A stretch of 64,000 bases of DNA from a virus (IMGVR_UViG_3300046683_000929:1-64000), one strand, 5' to 3'; counted from the stretch's first letter, positions 8,604 to 38,444 are shown. A program made the numbers and translations. The notes: generated from the sequence alone by a model not told the origin.

Positions 8604-11600
8604 ATGGAAATTATCGCTAATCAAATCTACGTGAGTCGAATGGACAACATGGCTCCGTTAGTCATACTTGCTGTTATTGGTAAGTATATTATGTTTAAGC
8701 CGCATAAATCACGGCAGCATCCACAAGTATATACCAAGGCGTTTTTTAAACAAGCCTTTATTAAAGACTGCAAATACAAACTAAAACATTTTAGACATGG
8801 AACAACCCATTGAAAACAAAGGCTGGAAACAATTATCAATCGGCACATACAGCGGTGCCTTAACTGGACCATATATTGAAATAAACCAGGGAGCCAATAG
8901 TATATTCCTATCGCCAGAAGGACTAAAAAATCTCGTGGAATCCAGCACTGAAATTTTAACTTATTTCAAAATAGAATAATCCCATGGAAGACAATCTTAA
9001 ACCCCTCTACTTTAAAGTAGGAGATCAAGTAGTTACTAATCGATTTGAAACAACACCGCCATTAACGTTCCTTTCCAGAATGAATGAATATGTGGGGAAA
9101 ACAGGGCCAATTCAAGAAATATTTGAGAACTGTATATTAGTACATGGCTTTTATTGGCCATGGAGTGCTATTGAGCATCCAAATTCACTCCTGCAAGACG
9201 ACGATTCATTTAATACCGCTGTCGCCCAAGAAATAAAAGAGCGAGAAGCATTTTTGAATTATCATGCCGACTGGATAAAATCACAGAGAGATGGTGAATT
9301 GATATATAATGAGGCTATTAATAAACTGGAAATTGATAAAAAAATAGCTCATGAAATCAAATCATCAAAGATTAAAACCCATAACGACTTTGTAGCCGCT
9401 AAGAATAAACTTATGGTTGTAATGTACGACCATTTTGAAAATCAAATTGACACGGCCAAAGTAGAACGCATGGTAGAAAAGTATAAAGCTAATCCCTGTG
9501 CTTCTCCAGAAGTTTGGATTGCTCTGGAACCTATGAATGAGGCCGAAAAACAAGCTTTCCTTAATGCCATTGCTACCCTGCCAGAATCAAAGTATACCTG
9601 GCTAAAGCTTACACAAGAGGAACTTTCTGATTTAGTCCACGCACTCGACTATACCCGCGATAACTATACTGGGGTATGGGGTGAAAATAAAAGGAAACGT
9701 CACTTCGAACTTCAAGCCATGATCAATAAATATATTTCACCATGAACGAACCCCTTATCCAACTAAACGCCATCCTGGTAGAGAAAGGTTTAAATATCTG
9801 CTTCTCTGCACAAGATAATCATGGATTCATTACAGTTTACATGATCAAAAATGGTATAACCACAACCCTTAAATCAAATGCTACTCCACCTCAAGTTACT
9901 ATGATGTGTGAAGTAGCTATTAAAATCTTAAGTTAAAATAACATGGATATATTCGAACAAATCGCTAACGATCCCGGAGAAATGATACATAATTTCGATG
10001 AATCACATCGCAATGTTTTTATTTGCACCGGTTACCAAATGCGGCACGCCAAAGCAAAAGGTTTTGAAAGATACGTAGGGCGCTTAGAACAAGTCAGGCT
10101 TGAACATGGACAGTTCGGTAGCGACCTAGTATTTATCCTCCATCATGACGGTGTTACATGGACTCATGAAAATCAATCCTTCTATCTTGTTAAAAAAAAA
10201 TACATTCCAGAATTAAGCGAAATGTACAAGGATTTTGACGTAGTGCCCGACACAGAAGCATGGACAAGTAAAGGTGAAAATCCGGAATATGGTTTTATTA
10301 TCCCTTCTAAAATTCCGGAAGGAGAAACTACTCCACTGCGAGAAGTCAAATCAGACATATACAAAACACTCGACGATATTTTTGGATCTTAAGTTAGGTT
10401 TGCTGAATGGTCAGTTTAATACTGGTCATACCACCGGGAAGTGATTAGCCCGGTGGTTATTTTTTATCACCTTTTACGCTAAGTTTATATTCACATTCAC
10501 AGCCAATGACAACAAAAGAAGTAACAAGTTTTGAATTCTCAACCCAAGAGGTTCAGGCAATACTGCTTAAGCACCTGGTCAATAACGAAAAGATAAATCT
10601 TCAGGCCATGGACACGTCGCAGATATTCTTTAACTCTGACAGTATTTGCCTCACAGTTACAAAAAAACGAAAGAAACCATTTAAGCTATAAACCATGAGC
10701 GACACAACCAAATGCTTCAACTGCGGAACACCAACCGCTATGCCCCAGAAAGTAAAACTGGACGGCAGCGAGATATTATTTTGCCTCGCCTGCTTCGCCT
10801 GCGCGAAAAGTGCAGCGCCACGACACATATCACTTTTACAAGAGGACAAACAATACCTCCAGCTACGAGACCACCGGAACCGACAATTAAACGTCGTAAT
10901 GGAAGGGGGCTTTCCCGCACCTACGAAGCACCTGGACGCATCACTTGAACTATACGAACGCAAAATGGGAACAGATTACTGCGCTGTTCTTTATCATAAT
11001 CATTTACATAGATAACCACCATGACAACTATCCAACGCGAAGCCGCAGAACTCTGGAAAACAGCAACCACCTTTGAGAAGATAACACTCATTGCCTGCGC
11101 AGTATCAGTTATTGTTTTAACTATTTACGATTTTTTTATTTAACCCAAATCACTATAGTTATGAATTTGCAAAAAGAAAAAAGGCTTTTTGATCTACAGT
11201 ACTTCGATCAAAAAGTTTGGATGTTTAGCCATATCCCCCCGCACGCCAAAGAAGAGTTGCGACCAGTTGCACGAGATTTTGCAGGAGAATCAATTGGATA
11301 CCTGCTTCTTAAATCAATAAATGATTTAACCGATGAAGAGGCTATGAAATTGGCACTCGTTTTAGAGCCGGAAGTTTTTACAATGGATGATGTTATTACC
11401 GTTCAAAGGTTTCCAGATTTTATTTTTATGATGTGCAATCAAGGCCAGGTCCAAATTAACTTCAATGGCCCAGAAGGTTTATTTTCGAACGATGATAATT
11501 ATCTTTTCCATACAGATTTAATATATCAGTGCTATTCAATGCTGAAGCTTTGGGGTTATTTATTACCCTTCACCTACATAGATGAAACCGGCAAGCCTGT

Positions 11601-14600
11601 AACATTGTCCCCGGAAGAAATAATTGCTCTTAAATGGGCTCAATACGCTACAGCATGAATCTAAGCGACATCAACGAGCGCCTGGATAAATTTAAGAACT
11701 TCCTTTCATGGCACCTACACGCAAAAGTTAATAACGCATTCGGCGGCAATATGAGAGCCGGGACATTTGATCAATGGCTATATTCAAAACACATCGACCA
11801 CCTGCTTACGCCAGATGCCGAAATAATCCCGCAAATAACCAATCCTTTAGGCAAGTACTGGAATCAAGCCGATCAACGCCGCATTTATATTGACAGAGAA
11901 AATGCCTATATGGAAGAATCTGAATTTAATAAACTATGCAATTATTCACATTCACAACCATCCGGCGTTTATATTGGAAAGTGCTGGAAAGGTAAAGATA
12001 TCAACGGTTGGTATTTAGCCTGGTACGGCCCGCATCCTAACCCCGACTTTGTTTCAAATAACTATCGAACCATCCACATTCTGCCGGCAAGAAACTACCG
12101 TTATGAAATGGATGAGAAACGCACATTAACTATTTTATCATGAAAATCGAATCTTCAAATAAATCTCAAATGTAATGGCATTCAGTATTTTTACTCTATT
12201 TACAAATCGAAAAAAACGGGCCAAAAAACCGTCTATATTCAGTATAAGAATGCCGAAAGAATTTTGGCCTCAATTGATCTGCAGGTATACTATTAACGGA
12301 ATTACACACTATACATACAGAAATCCCGCAACCAACTTTATTTACCAACATCAGTTTGATGATGAACAACAGCTATATATACGAACAGTTTATTTATAAC
12401 CCCATTTAAATATGAAAATTGATCTTGAAAAAATAATGATTGCCCACAGCCCACTAACAGGCAATATTTATGCAGGCAGCATATCCAAACCAGGAGTTTG
12501 GAAAAACAAAGTAGATGTCACAGACAAGGTATACGCTGCAGTTATTGAAGCAAACCTTAACCAGGTTCATAATATGAGCTTTGGCGATAGAACCTTTGAA
12601 TTGACTGTAAAAGAAATGCCTCTGATCATTCCTCCTGCCTACTACAACTGCGCAGCGTGCGAAATGGACTACAATGCCTCTGACCTATCCAAAAATTTAG
12701 AATGTCCCGTTTGTCATATAGTTTGCGACTGCGTTTTGCTTGATGAATTGGCTACTGCAACTTTCGAAGGCTTGAATCAAGAAAATGAAAAAGCAGTCGA
12801 AGCCATAGAGATCACTTCTGAAAACCTGAAAGCCCTTGGCTTTACTGAACACCCCTACGAGGGGCTGGCGTGGCTGGAAATTGAAAAGCCGCACCCATCC
12901 GTCCTGCTATTCACTGGCGATAAAAACGGATATCTGGAAGTAGTTCTGGAAATAGCGGACATCGAAATCAAACGCATGCGGTATCTTCATGAAGTAAAAA
13001 AGGCAATCAAATTCTTTAAGCCATGAGAATAGCGGCTTACCTTAATGTACACGGTGTAAACACAAGTGTAATCCAAATACACGGAAATCTTAAAAAGGGA
13101 ATTAGACTAAGGTCCTTCCTGTTTAAAGACTCAATGAAAATATCCTGTTACTTTCAAGTATATGGGGTTAAGCTTAGCTACTGGTTTTCAGGAAACATGG
13201 AAACCTTTGAACGCTATATGGAGACATATGATCCGGCCTGGCATAGCGATTATACAGTACTGGGCACCGAAATAAAACGAACATTGATCATGGTGCCACC
13301 GAAAGAGCGATGGCACGAGATTAATGGATTGCAACGCATGTTGGGCCTTACAAGTAGGTTTATGAATATTGGCAGTGTTAAAAGTAATCCGTTTTACTGG
13401 ACTGAATTTGCCCATCCAACCGATATCAATCCCCTACCAATAGGGCCACTTCCTGAAAATCCTTGGTTTGAAAAACAGATGGCAGAGTTTAACACCTTGT
13501 ATGGCTCATTAACTTCAAGAATTGGAATCCCAAAAGATAAAACTGGAGAACCTATTGGAAATACAAAAAGTAGACTATATAGGTTTTTCATTCCTGCATC
13601 CCCCGATATCGTCGACACATGGGGCTTTAGAAATCCCTACGCAGGGCTGAATTTACCGCCGCCAAGATTTCCCAATATAGCAGAATCAGAAAATGCTTAT
13701 GGCCCGTATCGCAATTACTTCAAATTCTCAAACAAAAAATACCGAATCCCGCGCAAACTCAAAAAACGCCTAAAGAAAAACCCTAAAGTAATCCCAGAAT
13801 TTAACAGCAAAGCACTATGGGAAAGATAAAGCATTCTATTGGATATGATCCAGTAAGCAATAAACCAGGTGTAGCATCTGTGTTTACATTTCAACTTCCA
13901 GAAACGCCCGCAGATAAAATGATAGTCATTTATGCTGGCCGGACAGAAACGGATTCATTTTATGACGAAGTTTTAAAAATGGCTGAATATTTCGGGGTGG
14001 CTATCACAGAAGAAAAGAAACCAAACCCAAAATGGATCGCCGCCATGAAACGTCCATTCTGGAGAACACTTCGCCGGCACTCCCTTCGCAAAATAAAATC
14101 ACGCCGCAAAAGGCTTATATATCTTATCTGCTACTTTGTTAAAATAAAACCATGAAAGAAGAACTTGAATGGAAATCGTTAAATCCAGAAAATAGAAAAT
14201 TTACATTAGACACGAACAAGGATGCCCACGGCTGGATACAGTTCAAAGGAGGAAGTCTTTGTATGGATGTACATTGCACATGCGGTCACCATAGCCATAT
14301 TGATGGAAACTTTATCTATTTCCTACGATGCCCTGCCTGTGGATCTATTTATGAACTAAATGGGCACATCCAACTTATTGAGCGACCAGACCTTATACTT
14401 AATGAAGATATCAACATTCACGATCCACAAAATTAATCACCACCACGATGCAAACACCAAAAGAAATACTGAGCCAATGGGATGGAATGCCATTCTCAAA
14501 AGACACAGACTGGTTTTCTGAAAAAGCAGTATTAAGAGCTATGGAAGAATATGCCCAGCAGTTCAAAGACAATATTTCAGATATGGAAACCAAACATTCT

Positions 14601-35996: not shown

Positions 35997-36052
35997 ATAG
36001 GCATTAAAGATAAAACTTATTTTCGGATTCTCTAAAATATTTTATTTAACGC

Positions 36053-36088
36053 AAAAAAGCCAGGATGCTTTTAACTATCCTGGCTTTT
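36053..36088 (-). terminator. Intrinsic terminator closing the RNA island
   Basis: Minus strand GCCAGGAT..ATCCTGGC followed by TTTTTT. Confidence 0.75.
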
Positions 36089-36123
36089 GCCCTCCGCATA
36101 CCCAGTGCACTGATGTTAGCGGC

Positions 36124-36230
36124 AAAACAATTTATCAAAGTTTGTATCCTACCCCCTAAACGACCGCGTCACCCAATCACAGATACATAGCAGGCCGGGA
36201 TCGAACCGGCGTCTCAAACTTTAATGTCCT
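36124..36230 (-). ncRNA. Circularly permuted tRNA-like RNA (YrlA/Y-RNA-like) B
   Basis: 5' stem TTAAAGTTTG, AGAC, T-arm GCCGG-TTCGATC-CCGGC, loop-closed acceptor CTGC..GCGG, TC, D-arm GTTT-AGGGGGTA-GGAT, A, 3' stem CAAACTTTGA; no anticodon loop. Confidence 0.7.
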
Positions 36231-36408
36231 AAGTACCATACCAGCAGTCTCTCAACTACTGGCTGCCTTCGCCGGGATATCTGTCGCATTAGTTTTCTAA
36301 TCCCTATAACACAACTTGCTAAAGCATTTTCCCTTTTGTTGGGGCCAGCGGTTTACTGGCCCCATTTGCATCTACTCTGTTTCCGTAATAACGGGTTCTG
36401 TATATCGG

Positions 36409-36474
36409 GGTATGTTCTAACCATTCTTGAACTATTAGCCTAAACCAAACGGGGATCGAAACCCGTATCTTACC
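36409..36474 (-). ncRNA. Circularly permuted tRNA-like RNA (YrlA/Y-RNA-like) A
   Basis: GGTA, AGAT, T-arm ACGGG-TTTCGATC-CCCGT, closed acceptor TTGGT-ttag-GCTAA, TA, D-arm GTTC-AAGAATGGTTA-GAAC, A, TACC. Confidence 0.6.
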
Positions 36475-36670
36475 ATCTTCTTGAAGCTGACTTATTAAGG
36501 ATTACCCATGCAGCTATATGTTTTAGCGAACTTAAAGAGAGTAATAAATTACCACGAACTTAAGCCGCTTTTTTTCATTTTAAGAAAGAGTAGCCAACCT
36601 CGCGTCAACTACCCTTCAACCTAAACCTTATCACAATTAATTACCTTGGCAGGTAATTCCTATTGAGACT

Positions 36671-36678
36671 CAAACATA
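36671..36678 (-). promoter_or_regulatory. Bacteroidota -7 promoter element for the ncRNA block
   Basis: TATGTTTG on the minus strand, in an AT-rich spacer after tRNA-Tyr. Confidence 0.5.
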
Positions 36679-36722
36679 AAGTTTATTTTTTAAAATAAAA
36701 AATATAAATGAAAATAAATTTG

Positions 36723-36806
36723 TCCAATGGATAGGATTCGAACCTATTAAGCCGCAAAGCAATGGATTTACAGTCCATCCCAATTCACCGTCATTGGAGC
36801 CAAAGG
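36723..36806 (-). tRNA. tRNA-Tyr(GUA), atypical acceptor stem
   Basis: ATGGA-CTGTAAA-TCCAT anticodon arm, long variable arm, ATAGG-TTCGAAT-CCTAT T-arm; acceptor CCTTTGG/CCATTGG has two mismatches. Confidence 0.75.
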
Positions 36807-36816
36807 ATATTAAGAG

Positions 36817-36899
36817 CGGAGAGTATAGGACTCGAACCCTGCGCTTACACGCCGCGCCTGTTTTCAAGACAGGATGTTCACCAATGAACGCTACTCTCC
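36817..36899 (-). tRNA. tRNA-Ser(UGA)
   Basis: GGAGAGT/ACTCTCC acceptor, CCTGT-CTTGAAA-ACAGG anticodon arm, G73; T-stem imperfect. Confidence 0.85.
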
Positions 36900-36905
36900 A
36901 AGTTG

Positions 36906-36988
36906 CGGAAAATCTGGGATTCGAACCCAGGCAACCTTTCGGTTGTACAGATTAGCAATCTGCTGCCTTACCACTCAGCCAACTTTCC
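36906..36988 (-). tRNA. tRNA-Ser(GCU)
   Basis: GCAGA-TTGCTAA-TCTGT anticodon arm, long variable arm, canonical T-arm, G73. Confidence 0.93.
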
Positions 36989-36992
36989 TTTG

Positions 36993-37073
36993 TACCCCAT
37001 CCCGGACTCGAACCGGGACGCCGAAGCATAAGATTTTAAGTCTTACGTGTCCTACCAATTTCACCAATGGGGC
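36993..37073 (-). tRNA. tRNA-Leu(UAA)
   Basis: TAAGA-CTTAAAA-TCTTA anticodon arm, canonical cloverleaf, A73. Confidence 0.93.
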
Positions 37074-37076
37074 ATG

Positions 37077-37150
37077 TAGCCTGCCTCAGACTCGAACTGA
37101 GAACATCTTGATCCTAAATCAAGCGTGTCTGCCAATTGCGCCAGCAGGCC
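37077..37150 (-). tRNA. tRNA-Leu(UAG), short variable loop
   Basis: CTTGA-TTTAGGA-TCAAG anticodon arm, 5-nt variable region ATGTT, A73. Confidence 0.9.
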
Positions 37151-37152
37151 AT

Positions 37153-37186
37153 AAAAAAAGCCCCTTGATTTTGTCAAGAGGCTTTT
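37153..37186 (-). terminator. Attenuator terminator immediately 5' of the tRNA array
   Basis: GCCTCTTGA-caaaa-TCAAGGGGC plus T7, ending 2 nt before tRNA-Leu(UAG). Confidence 0.85.
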
Positions 37187-37206
37187 AAAAACTTTCATTT
37201 ATAAAT

Positions 37207-37281
37207 CTAATCCATAGGATGCCTCTTTGCGTCGTATAACGAATAACTTAACAAGAGACTATATAGATTTTTATTTTTCAT
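37207..37281 (-). CDS. Leader peptide MKNKNLYSLLLSYSLYDAKRHPMD (putative attenuator)
   Basis: ATG AAA AAT AAA AAT CTA TAT AGT CTC TTG TTA AGT TAT TCG TTA TAC GAC GCA AAG AGG CAT CCT ATG GAT TAG; contains AAGAGGC, complementary to the terminator 5' arm. Confidence 0.8.
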   Translation of the reverse strand: MKNKNLYSLLLSYSLYDAKRHPMD

Positions 37282-37364
37282 ATTAAAACATCAATGGCAA
37301 CAAGCGATAGTATCTTTATTTTTCTACCAACGAAGTAAGGTACATCTACGGCACATCGATATCA

Positions 37365-37372
37365 CAAAAGTA
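37365..37372 (-). promoter_or_regulatory. Bacteroidota -7 promoter element for the leader/tRNA operon
   Basis: TACTTTTG matches TAnnTTTG, about 85 nt upstream of the leader ATG. Confidence 0.55.
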
Positions 37373-37410
37373 AACTAATTTTTTAAAATAAAAAATGTAA
37401 TTCAAAATAA

Positions 37411-37438
37411 AACTGGCCGACATTAATGTCGGCCAGTT
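37411..37438 (-). terminator. Intrinsic terminator
   Basis: Perfect AACTGGCCGACA/TGTCGGCCAGTT stem with a T-rich tail on the minus strand. Confidence 0.75.
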
Positions 37439-37445
37439 AATTGCC

Positions 37446-37577
37446 GTGGTAAGGTGCTGCAATGGTTCCCATGTAGTACATCCAGCCGCGCTCTCTTTAG
37501 CTACGCTCTCCAGTTAAAGTCTTAGGATTATGACGGCTTAGATGCATCTACTTATATATATGCATTGAGGTTACCAC
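37446..37577 (-). ncRNA. Putative rod-like structured RNA
   Basis: Nested pairings GTGGTAA/TTACCAC, CAATG/CATTG, GTAG/CTAC, TGCATCT/GGATGTA, AGCCG/CGGCT. Confidence 0.45.
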
Positions 37578-37578
37578 T

Positions 37579-38010
37579 TTAGCCAACAGATAAATCTTTT
37601 GCTTTCGAAACTTTACTTTTCGCCTCGACTCTTGCTTGTGTGGCAAGCTCCAAATAACGCTTTGCGTCATTAAGTAAATCATCGGCCTCTTTTAATAACT
37701 GCTTCTTAATAGATATAAAGTCTTTCACATAGCCGAGTTTTTGATAAACTTCGTATTCATCAAGAAACATGAAATGATATCCAGCTGGATTAGCCGAAAA
37801 ATGAGTTACACTGCCCCTATCTTGCATAGGCCCATGATCTGGCACTATCTTAATGTTGGCACACACAGAACTCCATGGCCGGGTAATTAAAGCCACGCAA
37901 ACATCGGCACCATTGCTTCGAGCAGCTGAATCATCTGGATTTGGAAAGAAAATGACAGTTTCGCCAAGTTTTGGCATGCGTTCGCTGAACGCTTGAGAAT
38001 TATTTTCCAC
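37579..38010 (-). CDS. Hypothetical protein
   Basis: Probable GTG start (VENNSQ); PKLGETVIF motif and coiled-coil C-terminus. Confidence 0.65.
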   Translation of the reverse strand: MENNSQAFSERMPKLGETVIFFPNPDDSAARSNGADVCVALITRPWSSVCANIKIVPDHGPMQDRGSVTHFSANPAGYHFMFLDEYEVYQKLGYVKDFISIKKQLLKEADDLLNDAKRYLELATQARVEAKSKVSKAKDLSVG

Positions 38011-38069
38011 TTTTTTAATTTTAAAGTCCCCGCAACATCGCGGATATTTAGTCAAATATATAAAATATT

Positions 38070-38444
38070 TTAGTAATACGTATCAGCCTTTTCGTTGTCG
38101 TCTTTATAATCTGTTACTACAAACCCAGTCCATGTACCTCTTACCAGAAGCTTTCTTTTACATCCCTGGCAGTTCATTGTATATTGCATTTCATGAGACT
38201 CTCCAACTTCTTGCTCACAAGTACAAATAGGGCATTTAAATATGGATGATACTGTAGAGATATGACATGCCACTTTTGGCTGCGCGATCCATTCGAATAT
38301 TGACGAAAACCCGAATTTATGACAGATAATATCTGCCTGCTTTTGGTAGTCATCTTTACGAACTCCTTTAAACATCCCAGCCTTTTTTAAACCGGCAAAG
38401 TCAAAGTGCTGTTCCATGAAACTTTTTAATGCTATATCAACCAT
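38070..38444 (-). CDS. Zn-ribbon protein
   Basis: CPIC...CQGC. Confidence 0.7.
   Translation of the reverse strand: MVDIALKSFMEQHFDFAGLKKAGMFKGVRKDDYQKQADIICHKFGFSSIFEWIAQPKVACHISTVSSIFKCPICTCEQEVGESHEMQYTMNCQGCKRKLLVRGTWTGFVVTDYKDDNEKADTYY

Follow-up and report, generated by a model that had tools for sequence, protein, structure and literature searches.

A putative ribosome-mediated attenuator whose leader codons match the phage tRNA genes that follow it

The DNA analysed here, IMGVR_UViG_3300046683_000929:1-64000 (the window), comprises the initial 64 kb of an IMG/VR virus record of 98,180 bp (39.9% G+C), and its minus strand bears a short cassette ending in five tRNA genes. We consider it likely that this cassette controls a phage tRNA operon by ribosome-mediated (leader-peptide) transcription attenuation, and the five tRNAs are probably made only when ribosomes read Leu, Ser, and Tyr codons slowly. 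An attenuator with control codons matching the tRNAs it gates had been proposed in an earlier note on this DNA, and the proposal is supported by the statistics of the codon run, by three alternative helices in the leader, by the location of one of the pairing partners (region 2) in the distal part of the leader open reading frame (ORF), and by a survey of other tRNA arrays. Along the minus strand the elements come in the order of upstream terminator, promoter, 24-codon ORF, terminator, and five tRNA genes. Every coordinate of the earlier note proved correct, with all elements on the strand it gave. The parts are as follows.

37411..37438, minus strand: strong upstream intrinsic terminator from the terminator scan, 12-bp stem and T-rich tail
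37365..37396, minus strand: promoter P1, A/T-rich 19-mer ATTTTTTATTTTAAAAAAT (37396-37378) and -7 box TACTTTTG (37372-37365)
37207..37281, minus strand: leader ORF, ATG start, 24 codons and stop, encoding MKNKNLYSLLLSYSLYDAKRHPMD
37234..37266, minus strand: control run, codons 6-16 of the leader ORF, 11 consecutive Leu/Tyr/Ser codons
37251..37269, minus strand: region 1, core GTCTCTT (37259-37253) within the control run, partner of region 2
37209..37230, minus strand: region 2, core AAGAGGC (37227-37221) in codons 18-21, alternative partner of region 1 or of the terminator 5′ arm
37153..37182, minus strand: attenuator terminator, region 3 GCCTCTTGA (37182-37174), loop CAAAA, region 4 TCAAGGGGC (37168-37160), T7 (37159-37153)
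37076..37150, minus strand: tRNA-Leu(UAG), 75 nucleotides (nt), without a long variable arm, tRNA model 44 bits
36992..37073, minus strand: tRNA-Leu(UAA), ~79% identical to tRNA-Leu(UAA) of Cellulophaga phage phi4:1
36905..36988, minus strand: tRNA-Ser(GCU), from tRNA prediction
36816..36899, minus strand: tRNA-Ser(UGA), unusual body, top Rfam match the tRNA-Sec model, below its threshold
36722..36806, minus strand: tRNA-Tyr(GUA), tRNA model 30 bits, just above threshold

The upstream terminator insulates the cassette from the preceding genes. Transcription from P1 is predicted, purely from consensus evidence, to start at ~37360, and a 79-nt untranslated stretch separates this start from the leader ORF, the start codon of which lies in an A/U-rich context without a Shine-Dalgarno sequence. 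The control run reads CTA TAT AGT CTC TTG TTA AGT TAT TCG TTA TAC. Between the end of the attenuator terminator and the first tRNA gene (37150) there are 2 nt, AT. The five tRNA genes (37150-36722) are the sole tRNA genes in the whole 98-kb record. On sequence, the cassette thus combines a separate promoter, an ORF with a codon run, a terminator, a maskable antiterminator, and a correspondence between the codons and the array.

Among the Leu/Ser/Tyr runs in the six frames of the record, the one of 11 codons is the longest, followed by three of 8. It is the maximum of ~196,000 codon positions and is located in the ~0.1% of positions that precede the array. At the six-frame background frequency of 0.22, 1.4e-5 runs of 11 are expected in the 300 nt upstream of the array. 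The set of amino acids was not picked post hoc, because it is fixed by the tRNAs of the array. The leader also contains a perfect 7-nt complement to the 5′ arm of the terminator; when the leader was shuffled 5000 times with its dinucleotides preserved, such a complement turned up in 46 of the shuffled sequences (P ~0.009).

This complement belongs to a set of competing helices. The 140-nt leader has a folding z of -3.4 against shuffles, and its minimum-free-energy fold consists of two hairpins, 1:2 and 3:4. In the former, the region 1 core GUCUCUU pairs with AAGAGGC of region 2, and in the latter region 3 GCCUCUUGA pairs with region 4 UCAAGGGGC. Region 1 is a near-copy of region 3, and region 2 of region 4, so that a three-way switch is possible. 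The 1:2, 2:3, and 3:4 helices have energies of -13.7, -11.6, and -16.6 kcal/mol, respectively, and are mutually exclusive. The terminator itself has a 9-bp G+C-rich stem, which becomes a 13-bp hairpin with its A-U extension (-16.6 kcal/mol by ViennaRNA). It is absent from the output of the consensus terminator scan, presumably because the flanking A/U bases may extend the stem into the U tract.

Ribosome masking was modeled with a 30-nt footprint on the nascent RNA prior to the synthesis of region 4. Without a ribosome, region 2 is tied up by region 1, which keeps the probability of the 2:3 helix at 0.18. This probability is 0.88-0.98 when the ribosomal A site is at codons 1-14, and 0 from codon 15 to the stop. 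Thus, when the leader is folded with and without masking, as the earlier note had proposed, the 2:3 helix switches at codons 14/15; a looser measure of pairing, described below, is less clear. The equilibrium ddG of upstream pairing by the terminator arm, calculated ribosome-free, is worse than in shuffles. In agreement with the model, it is the pairing of region 2 with region 1 that accounts for this, and the quantity is not a useful test by itself.

From these features, we infer translation of the leader, coupling between ribosome and RNA polymerase, and stall-dependent read-through. Transcription would start from P1 (~37360), and a ribosome translating the 24-codon leader would follow close behind RNA polymerase. 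With fast decoding of Leu, Ser, and Tyr codons, the ribosome would reach codons 15-24 and the stop, where it covers region 2 (AAGAGGC); the 3:4 terminator would then form and transcription would end 2 nt short of tRNA-Leu. When the ribosome stalls in the 11-codon run (effective A-site positions ~6-14), it would cover region 1 and leave region 2 free. Before region 4 is synthesized, free region 2 would pair with the 5′ arm of the terminator, and the polymerase would continue into the five tRNA genes. Since the products decode the tested codons, such a loop would be a negative feedback on decoding capacity, or tRNA supply, and not on amino-acid supply. Slow decoding could be caused by a host tRNA pool that suits the phage poorly, by loss of host tRNAs in infection, or by a tRNA-cleaving defence.

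If the cassette is an attenuator of this kind, the codons of comparable leaders should change with their arrays, and the survey of phage tRNA arrays suggested in the earlier note bears this out. Scanning IMG/VR with a D-arm word of tRNA-Leu gave 120 loci. When the arrays were ranked by the longest array-cognate codon run in the upstream 300 nt, the window came first, and the ranks just behind it were taken by cassettes of the same layout with other specificities. Two of them, with leaders MKMKTLVTLLSLCLLVVCTDTSSYVIT (L074) and MKNLVTLLSLCLLVLVTSTSSYAVT (L116) rich in Leu, Val, and Cys, have a TAnnTTTG promoter, a terminator, and tRNAs for Cys, Val, and Leu. An unrelated leader, MKNINNTSVLLLLCLVLDRMGYAC (L045), stands ahead of Cys, Cys, Val, Val, Val, Leu, and Leu, which is the same set of amino acids. 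A further leader, MRNLINIFENEFFAAEADF... (L122), contains FENEFFAAEADF and precedes Asp, Asp, Phe, Glu, Phe, and Glu, and the stretch PLFYLVP occurs in a leader (L039) ahead of Leu, Leu, Tyr, Leu, Val, Pro, and Phe. The distal part of these ORFs holds a copy of the terminator 3′ arm, with a length of 8 nt in the four strongest examples (L074, L116, L045, and L122), 7 nt in the window, 5-6 nt in the tRNA-Trp family described next, and 4 nt in L039.

The tRNA-Trp family consists of one locus (L118) and its relatives, which have a sigma-70-type promoter, a Shine-Dalgarno sequence, and the leader MFKTNTTNITCWPPGSRGMS, followed by Trp, Pro, and Cys. A motif scan gave 38 loci of this type, with tRNA-Trp as the first tRNA in 37. 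In 37 loci the ORF runs uninterrupted to the same stop even though its length changes by whole codons, and the 38th is cut by the end of its contig. Besides Trp, Cys, and Pro codons, the leaders carry codons for Gln, Ser, Ile(ATA), or Tyr, and they track the array partly. ATA ATA codons accompany tRNA-Ile(UAU) or a tRNA with the anticodon CAU, Tyr codons accompany tRNA-Tyr in one of two loci, and Gln, Ser, Pro, and Cys codons accompany the matching tRNAs in many loci. At two loci (L163 and L139) ATA ATA leaders stand ahead of tRNAs called Met(CAU), which are possibly tRNA-Ile2, with a lysidine-modified CAU anticodon, instead of Met. A separate observation is that a contig of the family (L016) has a glutamine riboswitch (RF01739, 54.6 bits, 11172-11224), which hints that these phages infect cyanobacteria or other marine hosts.

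Kinship within families inflates simple counts, and cassettes were therefore clustered before permuting. In a selection-free test, 54 sub-arrays with a terminator next to the first tRNA fell into 21 sequence clusters, and the best enrichment of a leader ORF for its own array was compared with that for permuted arrays (cut-off P < 0.02). Own-array enrichment was found in 6 of the 21 non-redundant cassettes against 0.82 expected, a count reached in 0 of 5000 permutations. The summed enrichment score was 19.2, compared with 8.9 +/- 2.0 for permuted arrays, and again 0 of 5000 permutations reached it.

The leaders of two uncultured families were not found in the cultured phage records. The same kind of correspondence is present in the cultured Cellulophaga phage phi4:1 (NC_021788.1, L165), which has three cassettes behind repeated TAnnTTTG promoters. 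In the first, the leader MKIQRLHLQELEQPIISGGTGV has an 11-codon cognate run and is followed by Pro, Glu, Gln, His, Leu, Leu, and Arg. The second leader (...TKTGITVIDKTKGARA...), with a 16-codon cognate run, precedes Ala, Lys, Ile, Gly, Met, Asp, Thr, Val, Arg, and Met, and the third (MKTNYCTYNNSNWSFSY...), with a 10-codon cognate run, precedes Tyr, Ser, Asn, Trp, and Phe. The annotation of this phage touches the cassettes at two points. Its gp075 ('hypothetical protein', 12210-12329) overlaps the apparent leader ORF of the second array, and a tRNA annotated as tRNA-Pseudo is tRNA-Asn(GUU) by ARAGORN, which fits the Asn codons of the third leader.

Several results weigh against the attenuator. 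In the full transcript, with region 4 present, the terminator always wins thermodynamically; being dominant at equilibrium, it leaves only a kinetic switch, as in classical attenuators. The looser measure mentioned above, which counts any upstream pairing of the terminator 5′ arm, gives 0.82 at the stall and 0.53-0.62 late in the ORF, a weak contrast. By this measure, 6 or 7 of 11 cassettes support the model, with one terminator missed by the detection rule, and 3 of 10 analogous cassettes lack the contrast. The earlier note had also pointed out that 10 of the 11 control codons are readable by the array tRNAs. The count is correct but has no weight, since the five tRNAs can read 77% of all Leu/Ser/Tyr codons in the genes of the phage itself and a match of at least 10 of 11 is no more than chance would give (P = 0.23). 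The codon-level match to the anticodons therefore adds nothing beyond the identity of the amino acids. The surveyed loci were chosen by tRNA-Leu and leader motifs and are not a random sample. Finally, the 158-aa protein encoded just upstream of the cassette has 47 homologues, and the relatives reached through it, at 55-73% identity, have no tRNA genes nearby. A complete 77-kb relative with direct terminal repeats (IMGVR_UViG_3300010397_000002) has no tRNA genes at all, and the tRNA cassette of the window is thus probably a recent acquisition.

These points have to be set against what other explanations would leave unaccounted for. The simplest of them is a constitutive promoter with a leaky terminator, in which the ORF arose by chance and the tRNAs come from unregulated read-through. 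AT-rich intergenic DNA has many short ORFs, and a thermodynamically dominant terminator suits this explanation, but chance does not readily place the longest run of the genome right before a Leu/Ser/Tyr array, nor provide the 7-nt antiterminator complement, and the design recurs elsewhere with array-matched leaders; we regard this explanation as quite improbable. A small functional peptide, membrane-active or signal-peptide-like, with its own terminator would explain the codon bias by the function of the peptide. The leaders of L074 and L116 (MK..LVTLLSLCLLVVC..) indeed resemble lipoprotein signal peptides, and some leader peptides are reported to act in trans (peTrpL, PMC7298713). The run in the window, however, is 11 uncharged residues, rich in Tyr and Ser and too short for a membrane span. 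Peptide function also leaves unexplained why, in unrelated cassettes, composition varies with the tRNAs (Asp/Phe/Glu; Trp/Pro/Cys; Pro/Glu/Gln/His/Leu/Arg) and why each ORF contains a copy of a terminator arm, and it is very unlikely to be the basis of the cassette.

It could also be argued that the switch does not depend on translation, and that the leader RNA is read by tRNAs in a T-box-like manner or by an antitermination protein of the phage or the host, with the codon run as a binding surface. The 1:2, 2:3, and 3:4 helices would suit any antitermination mechanism, and T-box leaders are known to sense uncharged tRNA through a codon-like specifier. No T-box (RF00230) was matched at E <= 1 in 36000-38200, however. 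The best Rfam leader family is Phe_leader (RF01859), which is sub-threshold (23.9 bits against a gathering score of 55, E = 0.44); no other family at E <= 1 covers the leader, and none of the leader families reaches its gathering score on eight analogous loci. In addition, the 38 loci of the tRNA-Trp family keep frame, start, and stop open despite indels, which argues for translation, and eleven codons for three amino acids suit a ribosome better than a single specifier would. A translation-independent switch is, on this evidence, very unlikely, and the ribosome-mediated attenuator remains the preferred explanation.

The promoter of the cassette is a genuine promoter type of this phage, as it is copied exactly after the array. 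Directly behind tRNA-Tyr, at 36671-36703 on the minus strand, the exact 19-mer ATTTTTTATTTTAAAAAAT occurs again with TATGTTTG. The 16-mer core of the A/T-rich element of P1 has exactly two copies in the window, each 5-6 nt before a TAnnTTTG box. The TAnnTTTG motif is the sigma-A -7 box of Flavobacteria and spans -12 to -5 (PMC9723704). Leader-peptide attenuation has been inferred for amino-acid operons of Flavobacterium (PMC9723704), and hosts with this type of promoter are thus probably able to run the mechanism. The second copy of the promoter faces ~600 nt of ORF-free sequence (36050-36660), and the array and the region behind this copy seem to be neighboring RNA cassettes, each driven by its own promoter. 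A 9-codon mini-ORF, MYLTSLVEK (37316-37345, minus strand), lies in the untranslated stretch between P1 and the leader ORF. Within five of its codons it has Tyr, Leu, Ser, and Leu, and it may be chance or a second test ORF.

Attempts to find close relatives of this particular cassette in other genomes were negative. When the leader was compared by blastn with 50,697 phage records, only chance-level A/T-rich matches were obtained; the scan of genome contigs for relatives of the cassette gave nothing, and neither did exact-pattern scans for tRNA-Leu(UAG) and the promoter. As for the record itself, the 7-codon stretch YLLSSLS is present twice outside the window, at 86142-86162 and 97176-97196 on the plus strand of the record and 11,034 bp apart, which suggests a long internal or terminal repeat. 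The completeness of 55% given by CheckV for the 98-kb record may be an underestimate.

Multi-amino-acid leaders are well known from amino-acid operons. The thr leader of E. coli and Salmonella has control codons for Thr and Ile, the ilvGMEDA leader has them for Ile, Leu, and Val, and further classical attenuators are those of trp, his, leu, and pheA. The cassette resembles the thr and ilvGMEDA leaders in its promoter, its short ORF with a codon run for several amino acids, its 1:2, 2:3, and 3:4 helices, its intrinsic terminator, and the comparable energies. It differs from them in that tRNAs are regulated and not biosynthetic enzymes, so that tRNA supply would be sensed and not amino-acid supply, and in being a phage element with a Bacteroidota-type promoter, no Shine-Dalgarno sequence, and no sequence similarity to them. 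Leader-peptide attenuators also precede aminoacyl-tRNA synthetase genes, as in the E. coli pheST operon. In Streptomyces, they are found before leuS, trpS, alaS, and thrS (PMC8079986). In such cases, as would be the case here, a component of the translation apparatus is attenuated for the amino acid of the control codons, whereas those leaders are cellular, control protein genes, and deal with one amino acid each, and the present one is viral, precedes RNA genes, and deals with three. T-box riboswitches share with the cassette a choice between termination and antitermination keyed to the state of particular tRNAs, but they bind the tRNA directly and need no translation, and the window has no T-box signature.

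The earlier note knew of no described attenuator for phage tRNA genes, and our full-text literature searches likewise found no description of attenuators before tRNA genes; Naville and Gautheret (2010) do not mention tRNA genes. A Phe-rich leader before the tRNA-Phe genes pheV and pheU of E. coli was considered and rejected, as neither MG1655 locus has an ORF of this kind and the promoter lies directly against the tRNA. The nearest published system is the trn operon of Anabaena sp. PCC 7120, a long accessory tRNA array that is induced by translational stress (PMC8421152, PMC10272220). Like the array of the window, it is accessory and horizontally mobile and, as proposed here, stays off until translation is impaired. 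Its control is different, since the repressor TrcR acts on direct repeats of the promoter, and the paper describes no leader, attenuation, or terminator.

The makeup of the array raises the question of a link to host defence. Its isotypes are only the three of class II, those with a long variable arm, and some of the tRNAs have altered bodies; tRNA-Leu(UAG), for instance, lacks the long arm. Phi4:1 shares the adjacent pair of Leu(UAG) (76 nt) followed by Leu(UAA) (82 nt). It has been reported that class II tRNA-Tyr of phages T5 and T6 rescues infection when retron-Eco7 or Septu cleaves the variable loop of host tRNA-Tyr, and that escape from Septu arose by amplification of a gene segment with tRNA-Tyr (PMC13096335). 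The array of the window similarly holds tRNA-Tyr among class II isotypes only, whereas nothing ties its phage or host to such a defence. From the class II isotypes and the armless tRNA-Leu(UAG) a defence link is conceivable, and the data are accounted for equally well by a plain adjustment of supply to the tRNA pool of the host. That the cassette is an inducible counter-defence, in which nuclease-resistant replacement tRNAs are switched on only when needed, we consider a rather unlikely extension of the attenuator reading.

In the usual view, phage tRNA genes are constitutive cargo which fixes a mismatch in codon usage or replaces tRNAs lost to defence. If the attenuator is real, phages would instead use a test ORF built into the cassette to gauge how fast particular codons are decoded and would produce the corresponding tRNAs when required, and leader-peptide attenuation would extend from amino-acid and synthetase genes to RNA genes. 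One could then predict by a sequence rule the tRNAs that are limiting for a phage in its host, and such cassettes would be compact, programmable sensors of tRNA availability. Since phi4:1 is in culture and has three of these cassettes, the question is directly testable.

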